Of a stretch of DNA of 64,000 bases, positions 31,024-61,532 are shown piece by piece. The notes below the pieces were generated by a model, which was given only the letters and a program-made list of their open reading frames with translations, was not told the DNA's origin and made no database searches. The position numbers and the translations under genes were made by a program. Position 1 is the first letter of the stretch, and each line of letters opens with the position of its first letter. The DNA comes from Rhodothermales bacterium (GTDB taxonomy: Bacteria; Bacteroidota; Rhodothermia; Rhodothermales; Bin80): positions 88,819 through 152,818 of the forward strand of contig OX638318.1 of NCBI GenBank assembly GCA_951812585.1. Reading direction: 5' to 3'.

Positions 31024-31108
31024 TGCCTATGCCCATGTGCTTGCTTCTCAGGGCAATTGGGTCTTGGGCACGGGCATCCACTGGATCGCACGGGACCAGT
31101 TACCGTTG
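31024..31108 (+). pseudogene. Degenerate second copy of the last ~28 codons of the helicase gene
   Basis: AYAHVLASQGNWVLGTGIHWIARDQLPL aligns collinearly with AYIHVLSSQGKTVLGAGIHWLRTGQITW (30877-30960). Confidence 0.6.
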
Positions 31109-31252
31109 AGGACGTTGCACCTTGAAGTGCGCTGCTGTACGCAGGTCTGCGGGGGTCAGTCCCTGAGCCAAGGACGCCGGCGCAACTGCGTGATTCCAAA
31201 GTGCCAAAACGTATATTGGCTGGCAACCTCGTGCAACACACACCAATCCGAA

Positions 31253-33720: not shown

Positions 33721-33904
33721 TAAATAAAGCCGGCGCTCAGCGCCGCACATGCCGGGCGCATGGACACGCGCCGCCATGCACCAAGTTGGCCGCAGCTGCA
33801 GCGTGCTCGAATCACTGGCGGCAGAAGCAGAGCTTGCGTGCGGTGGGCGTGGCGTGCGCTTTGAATCCGCAGTCACCAGTCGGATGATATCGACCACTGC
33901 GCCT

Positions 33905-33947
33905 AAAAAGCAAGACGCCCCGGCACCGATTACGGCACCGGGGCGTC
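33905..33947 (-). terminator. Rho-independent terminator of giant gene copy 1
   Basis: A 10-bp GC stem (gacgccccgg/ccggggcgtc) is followed on the minus strand by TTGCTTTTT, about 30 nt after the stop. Confidence 0.7.
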
Positions 33948-33977
33948 TCCCCTATACTCGCTTTGCGAGACGAACCA

Positions 33978-36900
33978 CTACTTGATCAGAACCATCCGAC
34001 CAGTCTCAATGTGCTTGCCGGAGGCACCCGTAGCGACTACTCGGTAGAAGTAGTTGCCCGAAGCCAGGCTTGTTGCATTGAGCTCGACCGTACGGCTGTG
34101 TCCAGCCTCCAGCTCCTGTGCTGGCAGCGTCATCACATTCCGCCCAAGCATGTCAAACACCGTGATGCTCACCTGTGCCGTCTCAGGCAGATCAAATTCA
34201 ATCCGCGTAGACGGGTTGAACGGATTCGGATAGTTGCCCAAGAGCGTAAACTCTGTCGGCAACTCCTCGGTCGCCGCAGCCGTGATGACCTGCGGGAAGA
34301 ACGTGCTACCGTCCATCCCCACGCCCATCATTGTGAGGCCCTCAGCAGCAGATTTGCCAACGCCAGACATGTTAAGCACCAGCGCCTTGTCCGCGTAGCC
34401 ATCCAACTCGAAACGGAAGACCTCGATCTGCGTGGCACCATCAGAGGTTAACACCTCGATGTTGTAGCCGCCCGGATCCAGCGACTTGTACTCGCCCACA
34501 TCGTCAAACGCAAAGTTGTTGATGAACAAGTCGTTGGTCACGCGCGTGTTGTCCACCGGATCCAGCGTGCGGATGTCAATCTCTCCCAATGCGCTCGCAC
34601 CGTGCACCACGTAAAAGTCCACCATGTTGCTGACGCTAGACGCCGTGCGCACATCCTCCCGGATGACCAGACTCACCACGCCGGCCGCCGCGTTACCATG
34701 CGCAATCACATGGTAGTGCTTGTTCCGGTCGAAGCGAACTGGCAGACTCAGTAGCGGCGCGGAGTTGTCCGGCGCAGCAGCAGCGACGATGTCCAGCGTG
34801 TGATTGCCTGCAGCAACGACCCCAAAGGCAAGCGCCGACTGGAACATGAAGTCGTCCGCGACCTTGTTGTCGTCGAGGTAAACATCCACCGTAGCTCCGG
34901 CTACGTTGTGAACGAACTGCACACGCGCCGTGCCTCCAAGGATCGGATCCGCACTGATCGGATTCTGCAGCATGTTCGAAGCAACACCTAGAATGCTGCA
35001 CATACCCAGTTCCAACCCCTCCTGGGTCAGGTTTGGAACGCCGTTGATGAAATCGTTCCCCCGGTTCGAGTCGTCATCCGTCGGGTCGTCGCTAACATCA
35101 TACACGCCAGCCAGACGTGGATTCGTTCCATCGCAGTCCCACTGAACAATACGAAGGCCAGTGATGTCAAAAACGTTCGGCAAATCGTCAGCAACAAGGC
35201 GTACGTTCGGGTCGTGTGCCGGCACAGCATCCAACTCCACCTTCCAGAACATGTCCGCCGCATTATCCAACAACAGATCCGTGCTGTTGCCATTGGCATC
35301 TACATGCCCCACTTCAAGGTTTATCCATTCCATCGAATCCGCCATTGCATCGTGCAGATAGCTCACCGATGCCGTGCCCGTGTTGCCCAGATCGTCAGGG
35401 AACTGCATGATCAGCGGGCGGAAGGAGTCTGGACCATCGCCCTTCGGACTGCCAACAGGGAAGATGTAGCCTGACGTTACTACGCCCCCGGTGGCATCGC
35501 CCTCCTCAATCGCGCGGCTCAGCGTCCCACTGAAGTAGCTGTTACGCGAACCCAACTGGATGACCGCATTGCCACTGCCCGCCGTGATGCGCCCCTCCAG
35601 GGAACTCTCGGGCGACGATTGCGTGATCATCCACCTGTACATTGGATCACCGCCGATGACGCCGTTCTTCAGCATAAGCCTGCCTTCTATGTTCTGACTG
35701 ACATCGCTCATCAGATTCAGCATGCCCGTATCACCGCCTGGATCAGAGGCTACCTCCACATTGCAGAACTGCGACATCGGGCCGCCCATCGATACGTTCG
35801 ACATGCCATTCGTGACAAACCGAACCGTGCCGTTCATGCCCAGCTCATTGGCCGGCATGCTCGCTTCGTCATTCCAGTCACTCGCAGCATCGAAAGCATA
35901 ATCCCCGTACACCGTCAATCCGATCGGTACTGTGTAGCCGTTAATTTCGGTCGATCCGGCGCAATCTCCGGCACTAAACTCGTAGGTAATCATGCTGTCG
36001 GTAGCAACGTGCATTCCGCCCACATGAAAATCGCCCATCGCCATATGAGATCCACCACCCAATGCCACCAGCGAATTGCTTGGCGTCGTCATCGAACCCT
36101 GCATGTAGTCACCAACCACCGACAAGACGTCCCCTGATACGTCCACTTGGCCATCTCCATCCAGCATCATGTCCCCGCCAATCATCAGCGTAACCTGCGG
36201 ATGGCCTCCGCCGCCTCTTCTTCTGCTGTAGTCGATCTCAGACCCGTTGCCAACGGATACGTCCCCACCAATCATCACGTAGTCCACACCCGGGCCAATC
36301 GCTAAGCTGTTGCTCGGCTTCTCGTCGCTGTTTTCTTCCAGCTCGTCGCTGTTTTCTTCCAGCGTAAGACTCGAAAACATCACCTTATCGGCGTTGTTCG
36401 GCGCAATTGGAGCGCTAGTAGTAGTACGAGTACCGCCGGCCAGCACAGTCAAGTGTCCATTGGAAAGAATCATTCCGGGAGGCCACATCCACTCAAGGGC
36501 TTCTTCGTCCGTTCCTGCATCGAGCGCGACCGAGCCTGCAAAGTGGATCATCCCCGCCGTAGCAGTCTTGGCAGCATTCGCTTTAGACGCCTCGTACTCT
36601 TTACGGGCCTCCGCAAACAGCACACGGTGCTCAGGCGTGTCTTCGTAGCGCATCTTGTCCATCGCATCCGCGAGGTCAAAGAACTCGCGGAAGGCCTCGC
36701 CTTTATCTGCGCAGGACACATCGCCCTCGGAGTCACACAGCACAGCGCCGGATGCAACGTCAATCGTGCCGCCGCGGGCTACAAGATCATTGCCCGCAAG
36801 GTCCACCGCGTTACCCTCGGTAACGTTCAGATTCCTGACAGCCGTATATCCTTCGCGCAGCGACAGGGTGACACTCATGCTGGCGGCGCAACTGTTGACA

Positions 36901-39467
36901 TTAACCGTTGTCGGGGTCCGAGCCGCGTCACTTGTGGCAGCCGCAACGGAGGGATACGTCGGAAGAAGATGCTCCGTCGAGGGGTCCATCGTACCCCTAA
37001 ACGTCAGGCTTCCGGTAGTCGCTTCGAATCCACCCTTCGCATCCACCATAGCGTCGCCTACAATCACGCTGCTTGGTGCGGTAAATGGAAAATCGCTTGT
37101 CACAACCAAGGTGCCCCGCTGCAGATTAAGCCTACCCGTGACATTGATACGGCTAGTCAACTCCACCTCGGTAGCCTTGGTGGCCAGGTAGATGTCAAGG
37201 GTTGACAGCGTGATGCCATTATACACTTCATGCCCCGTATCGAAGGAGCCCAAGCTGCCCGTGTACATTACCCTGCTTGGAGTGCGATACGCCCTGGACC
37301 CACTGTCCGTGGTGTATTCCATGTACGCGTTGATCCCCGACCCCCGGTTGATATCGCCCACAGTTCCTGGTGAGCGGTCGATGAGGAGATAGCCCTCATC
37401 TAGATTGAGCATACCGTTGGTGACGAGCTCGCCGCCCATGATGCTGACACCGTCCACAGACACCTCACTGCCCCCAAATATTAGCTCGTTCCTCGTATTC
37501 TTTTTGACTTCCAGCACCAGATTATCCAATGCCAGTGGCATGGGATTGGCGATGGTTTGCGACGTGGAGCCGCTGAATACGATTGCAGCGCCCGAGATGC
37601 CTGGTGCCCCGCTCGAGCAAACATTGGAATAGTCAGGCGAGACCGTACCGGTCGAACGCACCACCTGCTCTGTTGCATCCGTGAGGTCCAGCATACCCCC
37701 TTGCAACTCAAGTGTGCCATTGACCATGGCATGCACTATGGCCACCCCATAGACACCGCCCTGCACAGTCGTCGTCCCGGTCTTGATCGTCCGCCCGTTC
37801 TCGAGCGTCTTCTCGCTCTCGAAGTACGCGCCTCCGTAGCACTGGGGACTCTCTTCTATCTTGTACGTTCCTCCATCGTCCTCGTATCCATCCCCATCAA
37901 CAACCAACTTGTTGGCCATCATCGGCTTCGAGGCATTATTGAGCTCCACGGAGCCTCCTATCGCACCGCCGTTGAAATACACGCCCGTTGTGAGGCCGCG
38001 ACTCGGCAGAATATGCCCGGGAGTGATCGTGCTGTCGCCGGATACTGCATCCACTGCCACTAAGGCTGGATCCACTGTAGGGAGCCGGTTTCCAGAAAAC
38101 CACTTGTCCTCCATTCCGTAGCACTCCACAACAGGATCCGGCAGACTCCTGGTTGTTGTCGCATTTCCGGTTGACGGATCCGTGTAAACAGCAGTTGCAT
38201 CAACCGTGCCAATACCCGTAAGAACAGCGCCTGGCGCGGGGGCTCCCTGACCTTCAATAAATACGTCCCCGGAAATTGTCGTGCGGTCGAATTTCGTCTG
38301 CGCCATACCGCCGCTTCTGAAACTGCCTGAGACGTTGCTGGAGCTCACCCACAGTACGCCGGCCATATTCGTGGACTGGGCACCCGTGCCAAAGTTGGGA
38401 CTGATGCGCACGCCCGCTTGTGTGTCTTTCATCACATCCAAGGCGATCACTCCGTCCCCATTGATCCTGTATGCATGGGAATACTCATTCTCATTCTGCC
38501 ACCCCGAGTACATTGGATATACGTAGACGTAGTCAGCACCATCTTCTTCTGTCTTTATTTCCGTCAGCATCTCCGCCTCCACGCTGATATACAGAGTGCT
38601 GATTCCGTCCGACGTGACCATACCCGAAACGTTGGCTGACGGAAAACCGTCGGGGCCGCCGTAATCGAACATCTCGGCGTAGGCGCTGTCAGCTTCTCCC
38701 ATGGGCCGGGGCGCGTTGAGGTAGAGACCTTTGTCTCCGCTCAGCTCCAGCGTACCCATGACGTCAAGCTCGCCCCAAACCATGATGCCGTTGTCTGCCG
38801 TCCTAGCGGTATTGATAAACCCACCTGTGCATGTGCCCGTAACTTCGACCGTTTTACCTGAGGGGATCTCCAAGCGTTCAAAGTTTGGGCAGGTGCCGTC
38901 GCCGCCGGAGCCGTCGCTTACATCCATCGTCGTGTTCTGATCAATGACGATGTTGCCGCCAAGCGCCGTACGTGTCATATACTCGTTAAACACGCCATAA
39001 ACAGCCTGATCGGTTTCTGTGCCCGCTGGCGCGGTATCACCAAATGCGATCGTTCCAGACCTCAGGTAGAGCGTAGAGCGCTCATATTCCCGATAGAACG
39101 TCAACGAACCAGCGGTGAAGGTCAGGTTGCCCTGTATCGTCAAATCACCCTCGACCATGTGGTACTTGCTATTAGACGAGGTCTTATAAAGCAGCAGCGT
39201 TGTTTCGTCGTTTACAGTGAGGTGTTCCTGAACGAATACGCTGGAGCTTGTACCGCGGATGCGCACGGCTACGGTATCCTCATCCGCCATGCCTTGAGTT
39301 ATCGTCAAGCACGGCGCATCAAACGTGCAGTCCGCGGCAGTACCGTCCCCGTCGGCCGGATCAACGTAAGCAATGGTTTCTACTTGCCCAAACGCTGTCC
39401 CAGAAAACATCCCGCCAAGCAGCATCAGTGCCGCCACGGCAAGACCGAGAGTTGTAAAGTTCTTCAT
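33978..39467 (-). CDS. Giant T9SS-sorted surface protein, paralogue 1 (1,829 aa)
   Basis: ATG preceded by GGAGGGGG. Signal peptide LAVAALMLLGGMFSGTAFGQ. I recognise no domain in the first ~1,400 aa. Two DUF4397-like modules (ARVQFVHNVAGATVDVYLDD..., VDFYVVHGASALGEIDIR...) precede the T9SS tail (NYPNPFNPSTRIEFDL...GNYFYRV...MVLIK). Confidence 0.85.
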   Translation of the reverse strand: MKNFTTLGLAVAALMLLGGMFSGTAFGQVETIAYVDPADGDGTAADCTFDAPCLTITQGMADEDTVAVRIRGTSSSVFVQEHLTVNDETTLLLYKTSSNSKYHMVEGDLTIQGNLTFTAGSLTFYREYERSTLYLRSGTIAFGDTAPAGTETDQAVYGVFNEYMTRTALGGNIVIDQNTTMDVSDGSGGDGTCPNFERLEIPSGKTVEVTGTCTGGFINTARTADNGIMVWGELDVMGTLELSGDKGLYLNAPRPMGEADSAYAEMFDYGGPDGFPSANVSGMVTSDGISTLYISVEAEMLTEIKTEEDGADYVYVYPMYSGWQNENEYSHAYRINGDGVIALDVMKDTQAGVRISPNFGTGAQSTNMAGVLWVSSSNVSGSFRSGGMAQTKFDRTTISGDVFIEGQGAPAPGAVLTGIGTVDATAVYTDPSTGNATTTRSLPDPVVECYGMEDKWFSGNRLPTVDPALVAVDAVSGDSTITPGHILPSRGLTTGVYFNGGAIGGSVELNNASKPMMANKLVVDGDGYEDDGGTYKIEESPQCYGGAYFESEKTLENGRTIKTGTTTVQGGVYGVAIVHAMVNGTLELQGGMLDLTDATEQVVRSTGTVSPDYSNVCSSGAPGISGAAIVFSGSTSQTIANPMPLALDNLVLEVKKNTRNELIFGGSEVSVDGVSIMGGELVTNGMLNLDEGYLLIDRSPGTVGDINRGSGINAYMEYTTDSGSRAYRTPSRVMYTGSLGSFDTGHEVYNGITLSTLDIYLATKATEVELTSRINVTGRLNLQRGTLVVTSDFPFTAPSSVIVGDAMVDAKGGFEATTGSLTFRGTMDPSTEHLLPTYPSVAAATSDAARTPTTVNVNSCAASMSVTLSLREGYTAVRNLNVTEGNAVDLAGNDLVARGGTIDVASGAVLCDSEGDVSCADKGEAFREFFDLADAMDKMRYEDTPEHRVLFAEARKEYEASKANAAKTATAGMIHFAGSVALDAGTDEEALEWMWPPGMILSNGHLTVLAGGTRTTTSAPIAPNNADKVMFSSLTLEENSDELEENSDEKPSNSLAIGPGVDYVMIGGDVSVGNGSEIDYSRRRGGGGHPQVTLMIGGDMMLDGDGQVDVSGDVLSVVGDYMQGSMTTPSNSLVALGGGSHMAMGDFHVGGMHVATDSMITYEFSAGDCAGSTEINGYTVPIGLTVYGDYAFDAASDWNDEASMPANELGMNGTVRFVTNGMSNVSMGGPMSQFCNVEVASDPGGDTGMLNLMSDVSQNIEGRLMLKNGVIGGDPMYRWMITQSSPESSLEGRITAGSGNAVIQLGSRNSYFSGTLSRAIEEGDATGGVVTSGYIFPVGSPKGDGPDSFRPLIMQFPDDLGNTGTASVSYLHDAMADSMEWINLEVGHVDANGNSTDLLLDNAADMFWKVELDAVPAHDPNVRLVADDLPNVFDITGLRIVQWDCDGTNPRLAGVYDVSDDPTDDDSNRGNDFINGVPNLTQEGLELGMCSILGVASNMLQNPISADPILGGTARVQFVHNVAGATVDVYLDDNKVADDFMFQSALAFGVVAAGNHTLDIVAAAAPDNSAPLLSLPVRFDRNKHYHVIAHGNAAAGVVSLVIREDVRTASSVSNMVDFYVVHGASALGEIDIRTLDPVDNTRVTNDLFINNFAFDDVGEYKSLDPGGYNIEVLTSDGATQIEVFRFELDGYADKALVLNMSGVGKSAAEGLTMMGVGMDGSTFFPQVITAAATEELPTEFTLLGNYPNPFNPSTRIEFDLPETAQVSITVFDMLGRNVMTLPAQELEAGHSRTVELNATSLASGNYFYRVVATGASGKHIETGRMVLIK
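36321..36362 (-). repeat. In-frame 21-bp tandem duplication encoding LEENSDE x2
   Basis: ctcgtcgctgttttcttccag occurs twice. The same duplication is at 44511-44552 and 51723-51764 in copies 2 and 3. It lies at the upstream edge of the second hypervariable patch. Confidence 0.9.
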
Positions 39468-40245
39468 GTGTTCAGCCCCCTCCGGGGCGGTTGGTTAACA
39501 CAAACCAGGGCTGGCACCTCCAGCACACCGGCATTCAGGCGGTAGCAGCCCTGGCATTCGGGTCCTACCGCTACGTGTCTACTACACAGCAGTTCGCATG
39601 CATGCGTAACGTGCGCACGAAAAAAAAACCAGCACCCGAATCCTGCAATTCGGCTACGATTCCGTCACGCTTCGTAGCATCAACCCCGCCAAAACCGTTG
39701 GCGCACCAGCTGCAGGCAAGCCTTCGGCCCGGTCACAATGCTGACGCACTACGCGTAGCGCTACTGCAACAGCTAAATATAGGAATCCGCAACAACAATA
39801 CGCCACAGCGCGGATCATCGCACAAGGTATCAACGCACTGGCAATTCCGTTTCACAAGAAATCAACAATCAACAGTGATTAAGCCGCACGCTGCGCGCGC
39901 CGACGAGCACCTGAACGCTCCGTGTGCTGGGAACATTGGCCATCAGCGCGCAAACAGGGCCACTGCCGCGGGCCTATTGACTCTGCTGCTACTTTTCCGC
40001 ACGCTGCTTGCTGTGATGCGCGAACGTTGAAGCTTGTGCCGAAGAGGTTCCGCGTAGCACACAGGGAATCGCCATTCCCCTTGCGCAGCATTTGTGCCTT
40101 GCACAGATCCAGATAGCGCCACGCAGGCAAACGCGCAAAAAGGTGCGCCTGTGTGTGCGCTACCTTTCCTTCGTGAACCGCCTCAGCGGTGTGTGCCAAC
40201 AAAAATGAGACAAATTCGCCTCGGATTTAGTGTAGCGGATGGAAC

Positions 40246-41370
40246 TCATGTGGGCAGTAACTGGTCGCGTGTGACTACGAAGTTGCGGGACTGGCGGCCA
40301 TTGCTCTTGGCTACGAGCTTCACCGCAGCCTGGGGGTCGTCTGGCGGGTTGATCCACACCTTCCGCGGTGGCATGGGTACCTTGGGCATCCCCCGAATGA
40401 ATCGCTCCGGTTCTCGCGCATAGGCTTCCTGCATGACGCGCTGTCGCGCCTTCCATACCTCGCGCGTCTTGCCGTAGTGGATCGTCGAGGGATGCATCAG
40501 CGCAATCCCCGTGTGGTAGAATTCGTTGTTGTACCAATGGAAGAAGAGCCGCGCCCAGCTCCGGGCGTCCTCCAGGGAGCCGAAGCGCACCTCGTAAGTC
40601 CGGTGGTACTTCGCCGTGCGGAAGTGCGCCTCCGAATAGGGATGGTCGTTCGAGCGATACGGACGGCTGTAGGAGCCTTCCACTCCCAGCTCTGCCAACA
40701 GCTGCACATACGTCTTGCTTGTCATCACCGGGCCGCGATCCGAATGGAGGACCAGCTGGTCTCTTCGGACGTTTTGACGCGCGCATGTGGCCAGGACGAG
40801 ATCCTTGGCCAGCGCGGCAGACTCAAACGAGGCAAGGGTCCATCCCACCACGTAGCGGCTGAAGACATCCCGTAGCACGTAGCGCTTGAAGTGCAGGCCC
40901 TTAACCGGGCCCCGAAGCGTGGTGATGTCCCACGTCCAAAGCTCGTTCGGAGCTTGGGCCAACCACTCCGGCTTCGTGTACGGAGGATGTACGCGCTGAT
41001 TCCTGCGCTCGCGTATCGCCCTGTTTTCACTAAGGATACGATACATGGTGCGCCAGTGGCACAGGTAGGTGCCTTCATCCAGGAGCGTGGCCCAGATCTG
41101 GCGTGGCGGCAGGTCCACAAAACGCCTCGCGTTCAATATCGCCCGAATCTCCGCCCGGCGAGCTTCCGACAACCGTCGGCTGCTCTGGCGACGCCGCTTC
41201 GGCTGCTGCTGCGCCGCACGTTGACTTCTGTAATAGGAGGCGCGAGAGATCCCCACGTGGCGGCAGGCCGCCACCGTACCCAGAATCGGACGCAATGCCT
41301 TGACCCTCTCCCTCATCGCTACCCGGCCTCGCTCTCGCTGCTGATGCCAAAGAGCATGCAGACTTTTTTT
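40246..41370 (-). CDS. IS3 transposase OrfB (DDE integrase core; expressed by -1 frameshift from orfA)
   Basis: The slippery run of 8 A on the coding strand is at 41364-41371 (A AAA AAA G). OrfB contains LWTWDITTL..., HSDRGPVMTS and YSEAHFRTAKY..., a DD(35)E-type core. Confidence 0.8.
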   Translation of the reverse strand, partial: KKSLHALWHQQRERGRVAMRERVKALRPILGTVAACRHVGISRASYYRSQRAAQQQPKRRRQSSRRLSEARRAEIRAILNARRFVDLPPRQIWATLLDEGTYLCHWRTMYRILSENRAIRERRNQRVHPPYTKPEWLAQAPNELWTWDITTLRGPVKGLHFKRYVLRDVFSRYVVGWTLASFESAALAKDLVLATCARQNVRRDQLVLHSDRGPVMTSKTYVQLLAELGVEGSYSRPYRSNDHPYSEAHFRTAKYHRTYEVRFGSLEDARSWARLFFHWYNNEFYHTGIALMHPSTIHYGKTREVWKARQRVMQEAYAREPERFIRGMPKVPMPPRKVWINPPDDPQAAVKLVAKSNGRQSRNFVVTRDQLLPT

Positions 41371-41720
41371 TGAACCTCTATGATGGCCTCGGCCTTCTGA
41401 AGCTGCTGCCGGGACTGACCAAGCGCCTTGCGCAGCCGCCGAATCTCCTCGTCCTTGGCCAACAGTTCCTTCCCAGCCTGGGTCGAACCATAAAGCGCTC
41501 CATATTCGCGCTGCTTGCGCCACTGGGCCAGATGAGACGAGTAAAGGCCTTCCCGACGCAAAAGCGCACCGACCTCTCCAGGCTTGCTGCAGAGCTCGGC
41601 CTCGTCCAGAATGCGCATCTTGTAACTGGCCGTGAACCTGCGGCGCTTGGCCTTGGGAACCACTTCAGTCGGAGGGACCTCTGCCGTACCGGTCGTGTTG
41701 GAAGGGTAATCGGATTCCAT
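41319..41720 (-). CDS. IS3 transposase OrfA (HTH)
   Basis: MESDYPS...KRRRFTASYKMRILDEAE...LLRREGLYSSHLAQWRKQ is typical of IS3 OrfA. It ends just after the QKKV slippery site. Confidence 0.8.
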   Translation of the reverse strand: MESDYPSNTTGTAEVPPTEVVPKAKRRRFTASYKMRILDEAELCSKPGEVGALLRREGLYSSHLAQWRKQREYGALYGSTQAGKELLAKDEEIRRLRKALGQSRQQLQKAEAIIEVQKKVCMLFGISSESEAG

Positions 41721-42097
41721 GATTGAATAGGGGAAAATGATGGATTGGTTAAGCAAAATCGCCAGACCAGCCCTGCCGCTTGAACCCCAACGCGGCTACA
41801 CTATTAATGTATTGAACTGTCTCACTTCTTATTGGCACAGAGGGCAGTGACGACTAAGCGACGTCAAAGCGATATAAGGCAAGTGTAGAATTTATTGCCC
41901 CATCTTTGCTGCGTAAATAAAGCCGGCGCTCAGCGCCGCACATGCCGGGCGCATGGACACGCGCCGCCATGCACCAAGTTGGCCGCAGCTGCAGCGTGCT
42001 CGAATCACTGGCGGCAGAAGCAGAGCTTGCGTGCGGTGGGCGTGGCGTGCGCTTTGAATCCGCAGCCACCAGTCGGATGATATCGACCACTGCGCCT

Positions 42098-42140
42098 AAA
42101 AAGCAAGACGCCCCGGCACCGATTACGGCACCGGGGCGTC
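42098..42140 (-). terminator. Rho-independent terminator of giant gene copy 2
   Basis: Same hairpin and T tract as 33905-33947. Confidence 0.7.
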
Positions 42141-42170
42141 TCCCCTATACTCGCTTTGCGAGACGAATCA

Positions 42171-47675: not shown

Positions 47676-48486
47676 GTGTTCAGCCCCCTCCGGGGCGGTT
47701 GGTTAACACAAACCAGGGCTGGCACCTCCAGCATACCGGCATTCAGGCGGTAGCAGCCCTGGCATTCGGGTCCTACCACTACGTGCCTGCTACACAGCAG
47801 TTCGCATGCATGCGTAACGTGCGCACGAAAAAAAACAGCATCCGAATCCTGCAATTCGGCTACGATTCCGTCACGCTTCGTAGCATCAACCCCGCCAAAA
47901 CCGTTGGCGCACCAGCTGTAGGCAAGCCTTCGGCCCGGTCACAATGCTGACGCACTACGCGTGACGCTACTGCAACGGCCAATATAGGAACCTGCAACAA
48001 TAACACGCCACAGCGCGGATCATCGCACAGGTATCAACGCACTGGCAATTCCGTTTCACAAGAAATCAACAGTGGTTAAGCCGCACGCTGCGCGCGCCGA
48101 CGAGCACCTGAACGCTCCGTGTGCTGGGAACATTGGCCATCAGCGCGCAAACAGGGCCACTGCCGCGGGCTTATTGACTCTGCTGCTACTTTTCCGCACG
48201 CTGCTTGCTGTGATGCGCGAACGTTGAAGCTTCTGCCGCAGAGGTTCCGCGTAGCACACAGGCATCGCCATTTCCCTTGCGCAGCATTTGCGCCTCCATG
48301 CCACGCTTAAGCGGTATGGAAGGCTGATGCCCGAGCGCACTCCCCTCGGCGCCAGAATGGCTGCGCGCTTCCTGGCTACAATGCTTTCGCCGCCGCGCCC
48401 TCAGGCGTTCGAAACAGCTAAGGACCGTTGGTCGCTCCGGGAAGCTGTCTCATCGTGACGAGACGCTAAACGAATTGCCATGCTTA

Positions 48487-49062
48487 TACCTTGCATCCGC
48501 TCTTCAGTACACGGAAGAAGTCTTCCATGTGCCCTCGCTTGAGGTAATAATCCAGCATCCGAACCGCGGCTCCTGTCCGGTATGCAGTTCCATACGAGTC
48601 AGCAGCACCCACGCAAGCGGCTGCTGGCCCGCAGGCGGATTCGTCTCGCGCACATGAACGCCGTGCATGCGTATCGGCGCGGCCTGCCTTTCCGGGTCTG
48701 GAAGCAGCATGGACGGCAGCGAACCTCCGCGCGCGCTTGGCGGCGCACCGCCTTCGGACATGCCGTCACGCGTGAGAGTTCTATCTGCACTGTGGGTGGT
48801 TACGGGAACACGCTCCAGCGTCACAAACAGCTTCCGACCAGCGACCATGGTGCGCACGCACGAGCACATCCACCCGCTCCTTGGAGCGCTACAAGTCCAA
48901 GCATGCAAACCGGTCAGCCTCCCGATCCATGACGCACACCACAAGGCACTCGGCAAAAAGCACCGCTTGTGCCTTGCACAGATCCAGATAGCGCACACGC
49001 AGGCAAACGCGCAAAAAGGTGCGCCTGTGTGTGCGCTACCTTTCCTTCGTGAACCGCCTCAG
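48487..49062 (-). pseudogene. Relic of an IS4-family (Tn5-like) transposase at the unit 2/unit 3 junction
   Basis: In shifting frames it reads VVCVMDREADRF (DREAD motif), VHVRETNPPAGQQPLAWVLLT and LDYYLKRGHMEDFFRVLKSGCK (degenerate YxxRxxxE...K block). Stops are in frame, and it is truncated exactly at 48487, where the array leader homology ends. An 87-bp piece of it survives in spacer 1 (40099-40186). Confidence 0.6.
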
Positions 49063-49312
49063 TGACGACTAAGCGACGTCAAAGCGATATAAGGCAAGTG
49101 TAGAATTTATTGCCCCATCTTTGCTGCGTAAATAAAGCCGGCGCTCAGCGCCGCACATGCCGGGCGCATGGACACGCGCCGCCATGCACCAAGTTGGCCG
49201 CAGCTGCAGCGTGCTCGAATCACTGGCGGCAGAAGCAGAGCTTGCGTGCGGTGGGCGTGGCGTGCGCTTTGAATCCGCAGCCACCAGTCGGATGATATCG
49301 ACCACTGCGCCT

Positions 49313-49355
49313 AAAAAGCAAGACGCCCCGGCACCGATTACGGCACCGGGGCGTC
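49313..49355 (-). terminator. Rho-independent terminator of giant gene copy 3
   Basis: Same hairpin and T tract as 33905-33947. Confidence 0.7.
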
Positions 49356-49385
49356 TCCCCTATACTCGCTTTGCGAGACGAATCA

Positions 49386-52300
49386 CTACTTGATCAGAAC
49401 CATCCGACCAGTCTCAATGTGTTTGCCGGAGGCACCCGTAGCGACTACTCGGTAGAAGTAGTTGCCCGAAGCCAGGCTTGTTGCATTGAGCTCGACCGTA
49501 CGGCTGTGTCCAGCCTCCAGCTCCTGTGCTGGCAGCGTCATCACATTCCGTCCAAGCATGTCAAACACCGTGATGCTCACCTGTGCCGTCTCAGGCAGAT
49601 CAAATTCAATCCGCGTAGACGGGTTGAACGGATTCGGATAGTTGCCCAAGAGCGTAAACTCTGTCGGCAACTCCTCGGTCGCCGCAGCCGTGATGACCTG
49701 CGGGAAGAACGTGCTACCGTCCATCCCCACGCCCATCATTGTGAGGCCCTCAGCAGCAGATTTGCCAACGCCAGACATGTTAAGCACCAGCGCCTTGTCC
49801 GCGTAGCCATCCAACTCGAAACGGAAGACCTCGATCTGCGTGGCACCATCAGAGGTTAACACCTCGATGTTGTAGCCGCCCGGATCCAGCGACTTGTACT
49901 CGCCCACATCGTCAAACGCAAAGTTGTTGATGAACAAGTCGTTGGTCACGCGCGTGTTGTCCACCGGATCCAGCGTGCGGATGTCAATCTCTCCCAATGC
50001 GCTCGCACCGTGCACCACGTAAAAGTCCACCATGTTGCTGACGCTGGACGCCGTGCGCACATCCTCCCGGATGACCAGACTCACCACGCCGGCCGCCGCG
50101 TTACCATGCGCAATCACATGGTAGTGCTTGTTCCGGTCGAAGCGAACTGGCAGACTCAGTAGCGGCGCGGAGTTGTCCGGCGCAGCAGCAGCGACGATGT
50201 CCAGCGTGTGATTGCCTGCAGCAACGACCCCAAAGGCAAGCGCCGACTGAAACATGAAGTCGTCCGCGACCTTGTTGTCGTCGAGGTAAACATCCACCGT
50301 AGCTCCGGCTACGTTGTGAATGAACTGCACACGCGCCGTGCCTCCAAGGATCGGATCCGCACTGATCGGATTCTGCAGCATGTTCGAAGCAACACCTAGA
50401 ATGCTGCACATACCCAGTTCCAACCCCTCCTGGGTCAGGTTTGGAACGCCGTTGATGAAATCGTTCCCCCGGTATGAGTCGTCATCCGTCGGGTCGGCGC
50501 TAACATCATACACGCCAGCCAGACGTGGATTCGTTCCATCGCAGTCCCACTGAACAATACGAAGGCCCGTGATGTCAAAAACGTTCGGCAAATCGTCAGC
50601 AACAAGGCGTACGTTCGGGTCGTGTGCCGGCACAGCATCCAACTCCACCTTCCAGAACATGTCCGCCGCATTATCCAACAACAGATCCGTGCTGTTGCCA
50701 TTGGCATCTACATGCCCCACTTCAAGGTTTATCCATTCCATCGAATCCGCTATTGCATCGTGCAGATAGCTCACCGATGCCATGCCCGTGTTGCCCAGAT
50801 CGTCAGGGAACTGCATGATCAGCGGGCGGAAGGAGTCTGGACCATCGCCCTTCGGACTGCCAACAGGGAAGATGTAGCCTGACGTTACTACGCCCCCGGT
50901 GGCATCGCCCTCCTCAATCGCGCGGCTCAGCGTCCCACTGAAGTAGCTGTTACGCGAACCCAGCTGGATGACCGCACTGTCACTGCCCGCCGTGATGCGC
51001 CCCTCCAGGGAATTCTCGGGCGACGGTTGCGTGATCATCCACCTGTACATTGGATCACCGCCGATGACGCCGTTCTTCAGCATAAGCCTGCCTTCTATGT
51101 TCTGACTGACATCGCTCATCAGATTCAGCATGCCCGTATCACCACCTGGATCAGAGGCTACCTCCACATTGCAGAACTGCGACATCGGGCCGCCCATCGA
51201 TACGTTCGACATGCCATTCGTGACAAACCGAACCGTGCCGTCCATGCCCAGCTCATTGGCCGGCATGCTCGCCTTGTCATTCCAGTCACTCGCAGCATCG
51301 AAAGCATAATCCCCGTACACCGTCAATCCGATCGGTACTGTGTAGCCGTTAAGTTCGGTCGATCCGGCGCAATCTCCGGCACCAAACTCGTAGGTAATCA
51401 TGCTGTCGGTAGCAACGTGCATTCCGCCCACATGAAAATCGCCCATCGCCATATGAGATCCACCACCCAATGCCACCAGCGAATTGCCTGGCGTCGTCAT
51501 CGAACCCTGCATGTAGTCACCAGCTACCGACAAGACATGACCGGATACGATCACCCTGCCATCTCCATCCAGCATCATGTCCCCGCCAATCATCAGCGTA
51601 GTCTGCGGATGGCCTCCGGCGCGGCTTCTGACCCAGATCGAAGACCCGTTGCCAACGGATACGTCCCCGCCAATCATCACGTAGTCCACACCCAAGCCAG
51701 TCGTTAAGCTGTTGCTCGGCTTCTCGTCGCTGTTTTCTTCCAGCTCGTCGCTGTTTTCTTCCAGCGTAAGACTCGAAAACATCACCTTATCGGCGTTGTT
51801 CGGCGCAATTGGAGCCGTAGTAGTAGAAAGAGTACCGCCGGCCTGCACAATCAAGTGTCCATTGGAAAGAATCATTCCGGGAGGCCACATCCACTCAAGG
51901 GCTTCTTCGTCCGTTCCTGCATCGAGCGCGACCGAGCCTGCAAAGTGGATCATCCCCGCCGTAGCAGTCTTGGCAGCATTCGCTTTAGACGCCTCGTACT
52001 CTTTACGGGCCTCCGCAAACAGCACACGGTGCTCAGGCGTGTCTTCGTAGCGCATCTTGTCCATCGCATCCGCGAGGTCAAAGAACTCGCGGAAGGCCTC
52101 GCCTTTATCTGCGCAGGACACATCGCCCTCGGAGTCACACAGCACAGCGCCGGATGCAACGTCAATCGTGCCGCCGCGGGCTACAAGATCATTGCCCGCA
52201 AGGTCCACCGCGTTACCCTCGGTAACGTTCAGATTCCTGACAGCCGTATATCCTTCGCGCAGCGACAGGGTGACACTCATGCTGGCGGCGCAACTGTTGA

Positions 52301-54875
52301 CATTAACCGTTGTCGGGGTCCGAGCCGCGTCACTTGTGGCAGCCGCAACGGAGGGATACGTCGGAAGAAGATGCTCCGTCGAGGGGTCCATCGTACCCCT
52401 AAACGTCAGGCTTCCGGTAGTCGCTTCGAATCCACCCTTCGCATCCACCATAGCGTCGCCTACAATCACGCTGCTTGGTGCGGTAAATGGAAAATCGCTT
52501 GTCACAACCAAGGTGCCCCGCTGCAGATTAAGCCTATCCGTGACATTGATACGGCTAGTCAACTCCACCTCGGTAGCCTTGGTGGCCAGGTAGATGTCAA
52601 GGGTTGACAGCGTGATGCCATTATACACTTCATGCCCCGTATCGAAGGAGCCCAAGCTGCCCGTGTACATTACCCTGCTTGGAGTGCGATACGCCTTGGA
52701 CCCACTGTCCGTGGTGTATTCCATGTACGCGTTGATCCCCGACCCCCGGTTGATATCGCCCACAGTTCCTGGTGAGCGGTCGATGAGGAGATAGCCCTCA
52801 TCTAGATTGAGCATACCGTTGGTGACGAGCTCGCCGCCCATGATGCTGACACCGTCCACAGACACCTCACTGCCCCCAAATATTAGCTCGTTCCTCGTAT
52901 TCTTTTTGACTTCCAGCACCAGATTATCCAATGCCAGTGGCATGGGATTGGCGATGGTTTGCGACGTGGAGCCGCTGAATACGATTGCAGCGCCCGAGAT
53001 GCCTGGTGCCCCGCTCGAGCAAACATTGGAATAGTCAGGCGAGACCGTACCGGTCGAACGCACCACCTGCTCTGTTGCAGCCGTGAGGTCCAGCATACCC
53101 CCTTGCAACTCAAGTGTGCCATTGACCATGGCATGCACTATGGCCACCCCATAGACACCGCCCTGCACAGTCGTCGTCCCGGTCTTGATCGTCTGCCCGT
53201 TCTCGAGCGTCTTCTCGCTCTCGAAGTACGCGCCTCCGTAGCACTGGGGACTCTCTTCTATCTTGTACGTTCCTCCATCGTCCTCGTATCCATCCCCATC
53301 AACAACCAACTTGTTGGCCATCATCGGCTTCGAGGCATTATTGAGCTCCACGGAGCCTCCTATCGCACCGCCGTTGAAATACACGCCCGTTGTGAGGCCG
53401 CGACTCGGCAGAATATGCCCGGGAGTGATCGTGCTGTCGCCGGATACTGCATCCACTGCCACTAAGGCTGGATCCACTGTAGGGAGCCGGTTTCCAGAAA
53501 ACCACTTGTCCTCCATTCCGTAGCACTCCACAACAGGATCCGGCAGACTCCTGGTTGTTGTCGCATTTCCGGTTGACGGATCCGTGTAAACAGCAGTTGC
53601 ATCAACCGTGCCAATACCCGTAAGAACAGCGCCTGGCGCGGGGGCTCCCTGACCTTCAATAAATACGTCCCCGGAAATTGTCGTGCGGTCGAATTTCGTC
53701 TGCGCCATACCGCCGCTTCTGAAACTGCCTGAGACGTTGCTGGAGCTCACCCACAGTACGCCGGCCATATTCGTGGACAGGGCACCCGTGCCAAAGTTGG
53801 GACTGATGCGCACGCCCGCTTGTGTGTCTTTCACCACATCCAAGGCGATCACTCCGTCCCCATTGATCCTGTATGCATGGGAATACTCATTCTGCCAACC
53901 CGAGTACATTGGATATACGTAGACGTAGTCATCACCATCTTCTTCCGTCTTTATTTCCGTCAGCATCTCCGCCTCCACGCTGATATACAGAGTGCTGATT
54001 CCGTCCGACGTGATCATACCCGAAACGTTGGCTGACGGAAAACCGTTGGGGCCGCCGTAATCGAACATCTTGGCGTAGGCGCTGTCAACTCCTCCCATGG
54101 GCCGGGGCCCGTTGAGGTGGAGACCTTTGTCTCCGCTCAGCTCCAGCGTACCCATGACGTCAAGCTCGCCCCAAACTATGATGCTGTTGTCTGTCGTCGT
54201 ATCGGTATCGATAAAGTTATCTCCTGTGCATGTACCCGTAACTTCGACCGTTACACCTGAGGGGATCACCAAGCGTTCAAAGTTTGGGCAGGTGCCGTCG
54301 CCGCCGGAGCCGTCGCTTACATCCATCGTCGTGTTCTGATCAATGACGATGTTGCCGCCAAGCGCCGTACGTGTCATGTACTCGTTAAACACGCCATAAT
54401 CAGCCTGAGCGGGACCACCAGCACCTACCGGTGGCACGTTAATACCAAATGTGATCGTTCCAGACCTCAGGTAGAGCGTAGAGCGCTCATATTCCCGATA
54501 GAACGTCAACTCACCACCGATGAAGGTCAGGTTGCCTTGTATCGTCAAGTCACCCTCGACCATGTGGTACTTGCTATTAGACGAGGTCTTATAAAGCAGC
54601 AGCGTTATGCCTTCCCTTACAGTGAGGTGTTCCTGAACGAATACGCTGGAGCTTGTACCGCGGATGCGCACGGCTACTGTATCCGCACCCGAAACCTCCA
54701 TGCCTTGAGTTATCGTCAAGCACGGCGCATCAAACGTGCAGTCCGCGGCAGTACCGTCCCCGTCGGCCGGATCAACGTAAACAATGCTTTCTTGCCCAAA
54801 CGCTGTCCCAGAAAACATCCCGCCAAGCAGAACCAGCGCCGCCACGGCAAGACCGTGAGTTGTAACGTTCCTCAT
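49386..54875 (-). CDS. Giant T9SS-sorted surface protein, paralogue 3 (1,829 aa)
   Basis: Same architecture and an intact ORF. The last ~520 codons translate identically to copy 2. Confidence 0.85.
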   Translation of the reverse strand: MRNVTTHGLAVAALVLLGGMFSGTAFGQESIVYVDPADGDGTAADCTFDAPCLTITQGMEVSGADTVAVRIRGTSSSVFVQEHLTVREGITLLLYKTSSNSKYHMVEGDLTIQGNLTFIGGELTFYREYERSTLYLRSGTITFGINVPPVGAGGPAQADYGVFNEYMTRTALGGNIVIDQNTTMDVSDGSGGDGTCPNFERLVIPSGVTVEVTGTCTGDNFIDTDTTTDNSIIVWGELDVMGTLELSGDKGLHLNGPRPMGGVDSAYAKMFDYGGPNGFPSANVSGMITSDGISTLYISVEAEMLTEIKTEEDGDDYVYVYPMYSGWQNEYSHAYRINGDGVIALDVVKDTQAGVRISPNFGTGALSTNMAGVLWVSSSNVSGSFRSGGMAQTKFDRTTISGDVFIEGQGAPAPGAVLTGIGTVDATAVYTDPSTGNATTTRSLPDPVVECYGMEDKWFSGNRLPTVDPALVAVDAVSGDSTITPGHILPSRGLTTGVYFNGGAIGGSVELNNASKPMMANKLVVDGDGYEDDGGTYKIEESPQCYGGAYFESEKTLENGQTIKTGTTTVQGGVYGVAIVHAMVNGTLELQGGMLDLTAATEQVVRSTGTVSPDYSNVCSSGAPGISGAAIVFSGSTSQTIANPMPLALDNLVLEVKKNTRNELIFGGSEVSVDGVSIMGGELVTNGMLNLDEGYLLIDRSPGTVGDINRGSGINAYMEYTTDSGSKAYRTPSRVMYTGSLGSFDTGHEVYNGITLSTLDIYLATKATEVELTSRINVTDRLNLQRGTLVVTSDFPFTAPSSVIVGDAMVDAKGGFEATTGSLTFRGTMDPSTEHLLPTYPSVAAATSDAARTPTTVNVNSCAASMSVTLSLREGYTAVRNLNVTEGNAVDLAGNDLVARGGTIDVASGAVLCDSEGDVSCADKGEAFREFFDLADAMDKMRYEDTPEHRVLFAEARKEYEASKANAAKTATAGMIHFAGSVALDAGTDEEALEWMWPPGMILSNGHLIVQAGGTLSTTTAPIAPNNADKVMFSSLTLEENSDELEENSDEKPSNSLTTGLGVDYVMIGGDVSVGNGSSIWVRSRAGGHPQTTLMIGGDMMLDGDGRVIVSGHVLSVAGDYMQGSMTTPGNSLVALGGGSHMAMGDFHVGGMHVATDSMITYEFGAGDCAGSTELNGYTVPIGLTVYGDYAFDAASDWNDKASMPANELGMDGTVRFVTNGMSNVSMGGPMSQFCNVEVASDPGGDTGMLNLMSDVSQNIEGRLMLKNGVIGGDPMYRWMITQPSPENSLEGRITAGSDSAVIQLGSRNSYFSGTLSRAIEEGDATGGVVTSGYIFPVGSPKGDGPDSFRPLIMQFPDDLGNTGMASVSYLHDAIADSMEWINLEVGHVDANGNSTDLLLDNAADMFWKVELDAVPAHDPNVRLVADDLPNVFDITGLRIVQWDCDGTNPRLAGVYDVSADPTDDDSYRGNDFINGVPNLTQEGLELGMCSILGVASNMLQNPISADPILGGTARVQFIHNVAGATVDVYLDDNKVADDFMFQSALAFGVVAAGNHTLDIVAAAAPDNSAPLLSLPVRFDRNKHYHVIAHGNAAAGVVSLVIREDVRTASSVSNMVDFYVVHGASALGEIDIRTLDPVDNTRVTNDLFINNFAFDDVGEYKSLDPGGYNIEVLTSDGATQIEVFRFELDGYADKALVLNMSGVGKSAAEGLTMMGVGMDGSTFFPQVITAAATEELPTEFTLLGNYPNPFNPSTRIEFDLPETAQVSITVFDMLGRNVMTLPAQELEAGHSRTVELNATSLASGNYFYRVVATGASGKHIETGRMVLIK

Positions 54876-56035
54876 GTGTTCAGCCCCCTCCGGGGCGGTT
54901 GGTTAACACAAACCAGGGCTGGCACCTCCAGCACACCGGCATTCAGGCGGTAGCAGCCCTGGCATTCGGGTCCTACCACTACGTGCCTGCTACACAGCAG
55001 TTCGCACGCATGGCAGTTCGCATGCATGCGTAACGTGCGCACGAAAAAAAAACCAGCACCCGAATCCTGCAATTCGGCTACGATTCCGTCACGCTTCGTA
55101 GCATCAACCCCGCCAAAACCGTTGGCGCACCAGCTGTAGGCAAGCCTTCGGCCCGGTCACAATGCTGACGCACTACGCGTAGCGCTACTGCAACAGCTAA
55201 ATATAGGAATCTGCAACAACAATACGCCACAGCGCGGATCATCGCACAAGGTATCAACGCACTGGCAATTCCGTTTCACAAGAAATCAACAATCAACAGT
55301 GATTAAGCCGCACGCTGCGCGCGCCGACGAGCACCTGAACGCTCCGTGTGCTGGGAACATTGGCCATCAGCGCGCAAACAGGGCCACTGCCGCGGGCTTA
55401 TTGACTCTGCTGCTACTTTTCCGCACGCTGCTTGCTGTGATGCGCGAACGTTGAAGCTTCTGCCGCAGAGGTTCCGCGTAGCACACAGGGAATCGCCATT
55501 CCCCTTGCGCAGCATTTGTGCCTCCATACCACGCTTAAGCGGTATGGAAGGCTGATGCCCGAGCGCACTCCCCTCGGCGCCAGAATGGCTGCGCGCTTCC
55601 TGGCTACAATGCTTTCGCCGCCGCGCCCTCAGGCGTTCGAAACAGCAAGGACAGCTGGTCGCTCCGGGAAGCTGTCTCACCGTGACGAGACACTAAACGA
55701 ATTGCCATGCTTACAGCAACCAAAAGGCCAGGCTGGCCAAGCCAGAGAACGGCAATTAATGCACACGACACGACGGCTTGTTTCAGATTCATGCGGACGC
55801 TGCTCCGGTGCAGGCCACCGAGCTCACCGGAGAAGTGCAGGCTGACGCATTCCACGCTGCATCCTGGAATCTCGACCACCTTGCGCGAGGCCCATGTGCA
55901 GAGCATGGGCCTTGCGGAGCTTAGATCACCTGCGCCAAGCGATGGTGATGTGCGGTGCTGCTGAGCTGCGACACGTTCAGCGGCGCCGGAGTAGCATAAT
56001 GCTGGGTAGTGGGCCCCGCTAAGCCATTACGCCCG

Positions 56036-59717: not shown

Positions 59718-59826
59718 GGGACAAACATATTGGCTCCGCTCTGTAGCGTACGCGCACTGCGCACAATAGGAGCCATGTGTTCTCTGACGGTTTGCCCAAG
59801 ATTGGGCTGCAGGCAGCGCACCGGTC

Positions 59827-61487: not shown

Positions 61488-61495
61488 GGTGCCAG

Positions 61496-61524
61496 TATAT
61501 AGTTATATAGTTGTTATATATTTG
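61496..61524. repeat. AT-rich tandem motif tatatagt tatatagt tgttatatatttg in the 45-bp trbJ-trbL gap
   Basis: Read directly from the sequence. It is a striking AT island in GC-rich DNA, at the position where trbK lies in classical Trb operons. Confidence 0.6.
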
Positions 61525-61532
61525 TGCGCAGA

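Follow-up and report, generated by a model that had tools for sequence, protein, structure and literature searches.

What protein is encoded by three giant, nearly identical genes lying head to tail beside a type IV secretion system (T4SS), and why is it present three times? This question is raised by a stretch of 64,000 nucleotides from the Rhodothermales bacterium contig OX638318.1, which we call the window. The explanation that we favour, and consider moderately probable, is an insertion sequence (IS)-associated tandem amplification of the full expression unit for an adhesin-like beta-solenoid fibre displayed by a type IX secretion system (T9SS), located within a conjugative element or at its edge and yielding up to three variants of the fibre. 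The first-pass annotation had proposed the locus as an undescribed system, a claim that was not upheld, since the array consists of a single gene amplified three times and has IS material in both spacers; the encoded protein belongs to a family found across the Rhodothermales. The spacer IS elements and the adjacent T4SS are features absent from that annotation.

The three genes are intact, start with ATG and lie on the minus strand: gene A (33978-39467; 1829 aa, 192.6 kDa, pI 4.25), gene B (42171-47675; 1834 aa) and gene C (49386-54875; 1829 aa), the last also being matched in a copy-specific manner by a metagenome contig. The open reading frames (ORFs) and a self-BLAST of the window agree with the head-to-tail paralogues first annotated at these positions. 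The self-BLAST delimits three repeat units of ~6.6 kb that are mutually 97.2% identical (33721-40099, 41914-48295 and 49129-55523), and the similarity of B and C runs longer (41845-48486 versus 49060-55713); besides the units, the only further repeat in the window is a 95-bp piece (40092-40186 = 48967-49062). With boundaries refined by alignment, the unit C core (49129-55713), which is nearest to the T4SS gene VirD4, comprises a non-coding leader of 838 bp (54876-55713), gene C and two terminators; the unit B core (41914-48486) has a leader of 811 bp (47676-48486), and the unit A core (33721-40099) a truncated leader of 632 bp (39468-40099). Along the direction of transcription, the VirD4 stop (56036) is followed by 323 bp of unique sequence, unit C, a spacer of 642 bp (48487-49128), unit B, a 69-bp piece, an IS3 element (41844-40187), the 95-bp piece and unit A, and unrelated chromosome begins below 33721. 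The period from B to C is exactly 7,215 bp, as first reported, at the 3' end (41914 to 49129) but 7,191-7,215 bp elsewhere, a drift caused by indels.

Ahead of every gene stands the Shine-Dalgarno site, CCGGAGGGGGCTGAACAC-ATG, and the 3' end of each gene carries a hairpin with a 17-bp stem and a T-run, then a second GC hairpin with TTTATTTA; a GGAGG ribosome-binding site for each copy and the same pair of hairpins with T-runs behind each gene had been described from the start. A shared leader of ~0.8 kb had also been described, which fits B and C but not A: leader A is without the distal 191 bp, so that 632 bp are common to all three copies and B and C carry ~190 bp more. Leader C has a private 16-bp duplication, and its GGAGG stands 11 nt ahead of the ATG, while leader B has five specific indels (a single TGTTGAT, T8 instead of GG+T9, and three 1-nt deletions). 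In the compared leader intervals (39599-39874, 47830-48060 and 55020-55290), TGTTGAT is present twice in A and C and once in B, and the T-run, GG+T9 in A and C and T8 in B, lies behind a weak hairpin ~150 nt upstream of the ATG; an effect of these small differences on expression is speculation. The leader is non-coding, as its indels break any frame, and it is not strongly structured (fold z-score -1.9). No Rfam family was matched in the window.

The inter-unit spacers are dissimilar to each other. The A/B spacer harbors an intact IS3-family element of 1658 bp (40187-41844, minus strand) with an orfA (41319-41756; HTH_Tnp_1, 35.8 bits) and an orfB (40246-41523; rve, 68 bits), an NF033516 score of 163.6 bits versus a cutoff of 160, and imperfect terminal inverted repeats matching at 10 of 13 positions. 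Its membership of the IS3 family is completed by a 3-bp target duplication, CTG, which can be read because the spacer is uninterrupted at the B/C junction (49060-49062). Beyond the element lies the 95-bp spacer remnant (40092-40186, minus strand, equivalent to 48967-49062 by self-BLAST and alignment), and abutting this remnant is a deletion of 671 bp relative to the B/C junction (equivalent to 48296-48966), joined at the 8-bp microhomology AGGC(A/G)CAA. The B/C spacer consists of the 69 bp and 95 bp common with the A/B spacer, then a frameshifted IS4-family transposase fragment (~48487-48780, minus strand), which ends with YYLKRGHMEDFFRVLKSGCKV and a stop codon and is cut precisely where unit B has its upstream boundary. 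The IS4 assignment comes from a tblastn comparison with plasmids (450 records, best E ~2e-7) in which the matched features were annotated as "IS4 family transposase"; Pfam gave no match for the spacer ORF or for the frameshift-repaired fragment. Since the IS3, deletion and IS4 features are private, the three junctions have separate histories.

The encoded product is a protein of ~193 kDa, acidic (pI 4.25), with recognizable features at its two ends. A Sec signal peptide, MKNFTTLGLAVAALMLLGGMFSGTAFG before a Q and thus ending AFG/Q, can be read directly from the sequence, and the A-x-x-Q motif is kept in the family consensus. At the other end, Pfam and NCBIfam profiles identify two DUF4397 domains (aa 1514-~1720) and a T9SS type-A C-terminal domain (CTD; aa 1746-1814), which in copy A occupy 34026-34928 on the minus strand. 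The scores exceed the cutoffs for DUF4397 (PF14344; 70.2 bits versus a gathering score of 30.6, in two stretches) and, over aa 1746-1814, for Por_Secre_tail (PF18962; 34.4 versus 27 bits) and TIGR04183 (33.3 versus 23 bits), in agreement with the two DUF4397-like modules and T9SS tail that had been recognized at first. These signals predict export by Sec and then by the T9SS, giving surface or secreted products. Type-A CTDs are a basis for inferring surface anchoring (PMC4804311, PMC10202324) and, by analogy, anchoring to the outer surface through the C-terminal end is most likely. Adjoining the array on the opposite strand is a gene for a laminarinase-like protein with the organization GH16 - Big_7 - CBM6/CBM35 - T9SS CTD (31037-33094, plus strand), and this second type-A CTD cargo suggests that the organism has its T9SS in use.

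The first ~1,500 aa gave no match in Pfam, NCBIfam or PDB, consistent with the remark of the first-pass annotation that the first ~1,400 residues could not be assigned, and the family profile found no PDB match at E <= 1. AlphaFold2 models were obtained for aa 1-1000 and aa 960-1829 from a 14-sequence family alignment. The first model (predicted local distance difference test score, pLDDT, 72.6; predicted template modelling score, pTM, 0.68) is formed by all-beta solenoid coils of short strands, in which the loops at aa 299-328, 410-492 and 515-542 are disordered and aa 925-963 fold into a helical hairpin; the second (pLDDT 67.7) shows further solenoid, then beta-sandwich domains and the CTD. 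Each protein is therefore predicted to contain ~1,450 aa of beta-solenoid, the fold class of many adhesins, tailspikes and polysaccharide lyases. When the N-terminal model was compared with PDB by Foldseek, all neighbours were non-significant and belonged to one fold class, the best being the tail fibre of Agrobacterium phage 7-7-1 (E 0.09), followed by Ag43, Hbp/EspP/IgA1 protease, Hap, EtpA, HxuA, RsaA, PL6 and fucoidan lyases and GH136; BFVD returned giant-virus and phage fibre-like proteins, also non-significant (best E 1e-3). The structure prediction and profile searches proposed in the first-pass annotation thus produced a solenoid model and no significant placement in a known adhesin family. 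The modelled DUF4397 pair superposes on two immunoglobulin (Ig)-like domains of the PepT2 ectodomain (E 1e-4, TMt 0.66). As modelled, the protein is laid out in the usual manner of a T9SS-anchored surface protein: the functional solenoid is N-terminal, Ig-like spacers follow, and the CTD anchor forms the C-terminus.

An exhaustive search with aa 1-1200 against 1.84 billion representatives retrieved 15 proteins at E <= 1e-3, around ten of which are full-length relatives (1,600-1,982 aa, 30-40% identity). The domains of the ten family members examined are DUF4397 and the CTD only, the CTD being matched in all ten. In a word-index homology search, with single sequence and profile, generic T9SS CTD matches were dominant and the query's own cluster was the sole full-length match; a scan of JGI metagenomes with the N-terminal 1000 aa found no relative. 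In a genome scan the search patterns fell on CTD motifs, most of the 80 loci being CTD-only, and true relatives were sorted by tblastn; the additional relatives were found in Rhodothermales metagenome-assembled genomes (MAGs) only. Chromosome OZ241874.1 carries six dispersed paralogues, 61-74% identical among themselves, and one family paralogue on it (L012, 11675-14025) is split by a 2.3-kb insertion encoding a DDE_Tnp_1 transposase and represents an IS-inactivated copy. A profile-profile comparison unites both groups of relatives over their full length (probability 100%, E 4e-175, 1,599 columns), and both share the N-terminal motif signal-peptide-Q..Y(V/I)DPxxG..C..PC. The two closest relatives (P0014 and P0016) are each encoded by a single, monocistronic gene whose chromosomal neighbourhood is ordinary, and among ~20 family loci inspected the tandem arrangement is present in this window only, the others being single or dispersed. 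No source consulted for the members gives a family name; on sequence evidence, this is an unnamed family seen in the Rhodothermales only.

The between-copy difference is 2.8%, private in-frame indels included. The copies are slightly different, as had been stated, but not uniformly so, as 91 of the 113 variable residues fall in two patches: 57 belong to aa 1-340 and 34 to aa 1010-1190, which leaves 22 for the remaining 1,309 residues (chi-square p ~1e-32). In copy A coordinates, the first hypervariable segment (38448-39467, minus strand) also contains seven in-frame indel sites, and the second (35898-36440, minus strand) includes the acidic repeat LEENSDELEENSDE. Synonymous divergence (dS) follows the same pattern: it is 0.04-0.06 in aa 1-340, where the ratio of nonsynonymous to synonymous divergence (dN/dS) is ~1.0-1.2, and 0.03-0.06 in aa 1010-1190 (dN/dS 1.2-1.8), versus 0.000-0.002 in aa 341-1010, with too few changes for a dN/dS value, and 0.007-0.02 in the C-terminal third (dN/dS 0.26-0.62). 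The pattern is also mosaic. The 177 substitution sites form 69 runs, versus 117.6 +/- 6.2 in 10,000 shuffles (minimum 92), and the identity of the "odd" copy switches blockwise, for example with 10 copy-C-specific changes inside 92 bp.

A useful comparison is provided by a metagenomic locus (L082, ENA ERZ23495228 scaffold_17416) with 81% protein identity over aa 164-1040 and 93% over aa 1061-1829, in two different frames, which is either a frameshifted allele of a related strain or an assembly error. It is only 91% identical where the three paralogues are ~100% identical, and the core is therefore not intrinsically slow-evolving; the near-identical cores reflect either recent triplication or ongoing homogenisation. 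The variable blocks have diverged to the level of alleles from different strains. Judging from these alignments, the diverged blocks of the two segments were either imported or retained, a hallmark of segmental recombination. Frame preservation is apparent throughout: the net length change is divisible by 3 at all of the ~9 coding indel sites, but at none of the six indels in the leader (1, 7, 1, 1, 2 and 16 nt). The reading frame is thus under selection in all copies, and the early argument that three open ~5.5-kb frames speak against decay is borne out by these indels.

Taken together, these data may be explained by the following scenario. A self-contained unit of ~6.6 kb, made up of one gene with its long non-coding leader and a pair of terminators, would have been amplified to three copies at the end nearest VirD4 of an integrated T4SS element, probably in a Rhodothermales chromosome. 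The amplification would have been associated with insertion sequences, of which the IS4-family remnant in one spacer may be a trace, and an IS3 insertion and a microhomology deletion would have followed in the other spacer. The protein would be exported by Sec and then by the T9SS and held by its C-terminal anchor, the ~1,450-aa solenoid pointing outward on a stalk formed by the two Ig-like DUF4397 domains. Scaffold and anchor are nearly identical in the three copies, through recency or gene conversion, and the distal N-terminal tip (aa 1-340) and the internal segment (aa 1010-1190) differ by substitution blocks and in-frame loop indels of mosaic ancestry. Up to three adhesin-like fibre variants could then widen or alter binding, or recognition by phage, predators or partners. 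The anatomy of the array, its intact frames, the clustered and mosaic variation, the export signals and the IS and T4SS surroundings are observed; surface anchoring, adhesin function, independent transcription of the copies and any selective benefit are what we infer.

Several points weigh against this explanation. The overall dN/dS of ~1 is as compatible with relaxed constraint as with diversifying selection. The variable residues are weakly enriched outside the predicted strands (13/113 in strands versus 39/199 outside, p = 0.08). The adhesin interpretation is based on fold class and architecture in predicted models, for which the Foldseek E values are at least 0.09 in PDB and at least 1e-3 in BFVD. 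A "fourth allele" present in two 5,826-bp contigs (L001 and L083) was first taken as a natural mosaic and then dropped because the contig ends coincide exactly with the repeat boundaries, as is usual for a collapsed short-read consensus; it is probably such a consensus and is not independent evidence. No promoter was identified: a sigma-70-like hit (48048-48019) and Bacteroidota-type leader motifs were not above shuffled expectation.

The strongest of the alternatives, although rather unlikely, is a neutral and recent IS-mediated amplification, retained for gene dosage or by hitch-hiking with a mobile element, in which the copies drift and the repertoire has no function. It would account for the IS material in both spacers and for the overall dN/dS, as well as for an array occurring in this genome only, among ~20 family loci inspected, and a family member elsewhere having been inactivated by an IS. 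Drift, however, predicts uniform divergence, and dS is at least 20-fold apart between the patches and the centre; the site patterns are blockwise mosaic, the frame is preserved at all of the ~9 coding indel sites versus 0/6 in the leader, and all three 5.5-kb frames are open.

It is improbable that the solenoid is an enzyme, namely a T9SS-delivered beta-helix polysaccharide lyase or glycosidase whose copies differ in substrate-binding loops. This possibility is raised by the weak fold neighbours, among them PL6 alginate lyase, the fucoidan lyase FdlA, GH136 lacto-N-biosidases and pectate lyase, by the GH16-CBM6 T9SS cargo encoded in the adjacent chromosomal gene, and by a sulfatase gene within the window. 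These structural matches are all non-significant, however (TM 0.07-0.14), no CAZy-type Pfam or NCBIfam domain is present in 10 family members, the protein is devoid of a carbohydrate-binding module, and the closest relatives lie in unrelated contexts other than polysaccharide utilization loci (PULs).

A third alternative concerns the neighbouring secretion system. Directly upstream of the array and on the same strand (minus), Pfam and NCBIfam profiles identify a VirB/Trb-type T4SS (56036-63802) with VirB4-like, VirB5-like (PF07996), TrbL/VirB6, VirB8, CagX/VirB9, TrbI/VirB10 and VirD4/TraG genes in the window; no VirB11 lies between VirB10 and VirD4, and TrbC and VirB3 are present on metagenome contig L089. 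Three unrelated metagenome assemblies (JGI 3300002734, ENA ERZ15614419 and SRR3473501; contigs L089-L091) carry this T4SS at 99.5-99.7% identity. The flank from 56036 to 64000 harbors the mating-pair genes and the coupling protein that characterize an integrative and conjugative element (ICE); no relaxase, integrase or element end is visible in the window, and the element runs past the window edge. The array starts 323 bp past VirD4, and this interval ends, just short of the repeat boundary, in a terminator-like hairpin (55738-55726). Two distant family members in other Rhodothermales chromosomes adjoin T4SS genes homologous to these (43-66% identity). In one of them (L005, 4757-13697), the family gene is flanked by VirB11 and VirD4 and preceded by genes for a histidine kinase, a response regulator and an S26 peptidase, and it shares its orientation with these three and with VirB11; in the other (L008, 3511-18702), GmrSD and OLD-like defence genes are followed by the family gene, an integrase and then VirB4 onward.

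By analogy with the shufflon variants of PilV or with the aggregation substance PrgB, the array might thus be cargo or an accessory of the conjugative element, acting in mating-pair formation, aggregation or exclusion, with variants that broaden or specify the recipient range, and we regard this as a little less probable than an enzymatic role. The position of the array on the VirD4 strand of a complete-looking T4SS, and of the two distant members between VirB11 and VirD4 or beside integrase and VirB4 of homologous systems, speaks for it, and T4SS linkage at 3 of ~15 loci suggests more than chance placement would give. On the other side, no T4SS lies within 10 kb of most family members, among them the two closest relatives and the six OZ241874.1 paralogues, and islands and ICEs often carry or adjoin surface-protein genes for unrelated reasons. 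In addition, the G + C content is 56-58% in the array versus 61-66% in the T4SS. Less probable again is the more specific proposal that the whole solenoid family is a T9SS-displayed conjugative accessory for donor-recipient contact or exclusion, the tip-variable array setting the range of mating partners. If this is true, type IX and type IV secretion would be functionally coupled in a way not described before.

Programmed diversification, by a diversity-generating retroelement (DGR), a shufflon or invertible promoter, or cassette-based antigenic variation, is very improbable. The tight localisation of the variation and the leader polymorphisms (T8/T9, and one or two copies of a 7-bp repeat) could be taken as hints of such a mechanism. 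Against this, the 64-kb window holds no reverse transcriptase among the ORFs scanned, no extra partial repeat that could be a template repeat (self-BLAST) and no site-specific recombinase or invertase, and the substitution spectrum is ordinary (115 transitions versus 62 transversions; A>G 38, G>A 36), with no adenine bias, so that nothing in the window marks the genes as DGR targets. Nor are there inverted repeats bracketing the leaders, only short local palindromes, as a shufflon or invertible promoter would have. Promoterless partial copies are also absent from the window; all three copies are full length and have leader, ribosome-binding site and terminators, leaving no silent cassette of the pilE/pilS or vlsE type. 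DGR, invertase and cassette mechanisms were accordingly rejected, being largely refuted by the window searches, the mutation spectrum and the complete copies. The locus is a repertoire, for which a programmed on/off or shuffling switch is not supported. Of the contingency or surface-variation locus proposed in the first-pass annotation, the resemblance of the two hypervariable mosaic segments to a variant repertoire remains, and the switching mechanism does not, none being found in the window.

Least probable of all is that the array is an assembly artefact expanded from a single copy, which is excluded for practical purposes by the unique structure of every junction (IS3 with its target duplication, 671-bp deletion, IS4 fragment) and by the 2.8% divergence of copies with private in-frame indels. 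That short-read metagenome assemblies hold the gene in one 5,826-bp contig ending exactly at a repeat boundary might seem to favour an artefact, but such collapse is what a real multi-copy repeat yields. Contig L089 (ENA ERZ15614419) corresponds to window positions 64000-54284 at 99.5% identity, leading from the T4SS across VirD4 and leader C to the 5' end of the copy-C-specific allele, and stops at the point where the copies turn identical; L090 (JGI 3300002734) ends 165 bp inside the repeat, and the 5,826-bp contigs start as well as end at repeat boundaries. Contig breaks at repeat edges are the behaviour expected of a true multi-copy repeat in short-read assemblies. Exact-protein look-ups of the left-flank purA, GH16 and AddA-like products retrieved no record, and the independent support for the junctions is on the VirD4 side.

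The left flank (G + C content 58-62%) is ordinary chromosome, with genes coding for adenylosuccinate synthetase, SecDF, a type-III glutamine synthetase and a class-II aminoacyl-tRNA synthetase, along with the GH16-CBM6 T9SS cargo and an AddAB-like helicase-nuclease pair. This pair (24770-30999, plus strand) consists of overlapping genes for a PD-(D/E)XK nuclease of 964 aa and a UvrD-type helicase-nuclease of 1,112 aa, resembling AddB and AddA. No tRNA gene was found in the window. Another giant gene (16979-22291, minus strand; 1,770 aa from TTG, the first possible start; pI 4.09) codes for a protein in which five cadherin domains are accompanied by Big_9 and Cadherin_4 repeats; the repeat region of a myxosortase-dependent M36 protein is matched in part, and a T9SS CTD was not detected. 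A 590-aa protein encoded at 14767-16539 (minus strand) has a GWxTD domain, which is typical of Bacteroidota-type surface and secretion-associated proteins.

Several known systems resemble the array in part. The Kgp/RgpA/HagA proteins of Porphyromonas gingivalis (PMC5266723) are likewise T9SS cargo with type-A CTDs, whose paralogues swap segments and display mosaic exposed regions on a conserved scaffold. They differ in having cleaved-adhesin and protease domains where the proteins described here have a beta-solenoid with DUF4397, and in being encoded by dispersed genes, with no tandem array of whole units and no IS or T4SS linkage; Pfam, NCBIfam and PDB profile searches found no sequence similarity to the P. 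gingivalis adhesin and protease domains. The type V beta-helix adhesins (Ag43, Hap, Hbp/EspP, EtpA, HxuA), which are among the top fold neighbours, have a long right-handed beta-solenoid passenger projecting from the outer membrane, which the solenoid predicted here may resemble, but they use a beta-barrel translocator or a TpsB partner where the present family uses the T9SS with a beta-sandwich CTD. Their structural matches are non-significant (E 0.4-9, TM 0.1-0.19) with no sequence homology, and Pfam and NCBIfam detected no beta-barrel translocator or two-partner secretion (TPS) domain in any member tested. Tandem clusters of paralogues are known from the Pmp genes of Chlamydia. SprB of Flavobacterium has a type-B CTD and sprC/sprD partners. 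Like the proteins of the array, SprB and RemA (PMC7056307, PMC7807042) are very large T9SS-dependent surface adhesins with several paralogues per genome; the array differs from them by its type-A CTD (TIGR04183) and monocistronic gene, and there is no sequence or repeat similarity.

The lpl cluster of Staphylococcus aureus (PMC2568036) is also made of head-to-tail paralogues with block recombination and alternating conserved and variable segments, but it encodes small Gram-positive lipoproteins, its units span gene ends and intergenic regions, and its spacers have no IS. In the same order as the present organism, the flexible or "metagenomic" islands of Salinibacter ruber (PMC2800850, PMC6060240) are variable surface regions rich in IS or integrases and have been read as phage evasion; they are devoted mainly to polysaccharide biosynthesis, in contrast to the giant protein found here in tandem beside a T4SS. 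Variant surface adhesin genes linked to a T4SS offer an analogy in the PilV shufflon of IncI plasmids and PrgB of pCF10, but the array has no recombinase or shufflon, no homology to them and another secretion route. The protein combines the features of a T9SS type-A cargo and of DUF4397 proteins; it has neither the translocator nor the TPS domain of a type V adhesin, and the window shows no marks of a DGR target, a shufflon or a cassette system. Amplified and recombining repertoires of surface-protein paralogues are known; what is new is the undescribed protein family that builds this one.

For annotation, a practical warning is that this gene is collapsed in short-read assemblies. T9SS cargo proteins of ~190 kDa, with ~1,500 aa devoid of family or structural assignment, make up the unnamed family that the locus defines, and further divergent paralogues exist. 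It also offers a natural example of how a variant set may be assembled in a free-living environmental bacterium, by IS-associated amplification of a unit and subsequent gain of diverged blocks in two exposed segments. If the link with the T4SS is functional, it points to T9SS-exported adhesins of conjugative elements; otherwise the phenomenon is a familiar and well documented one that changes no concept, and the value of the finding is in annotation, as a new domain family.

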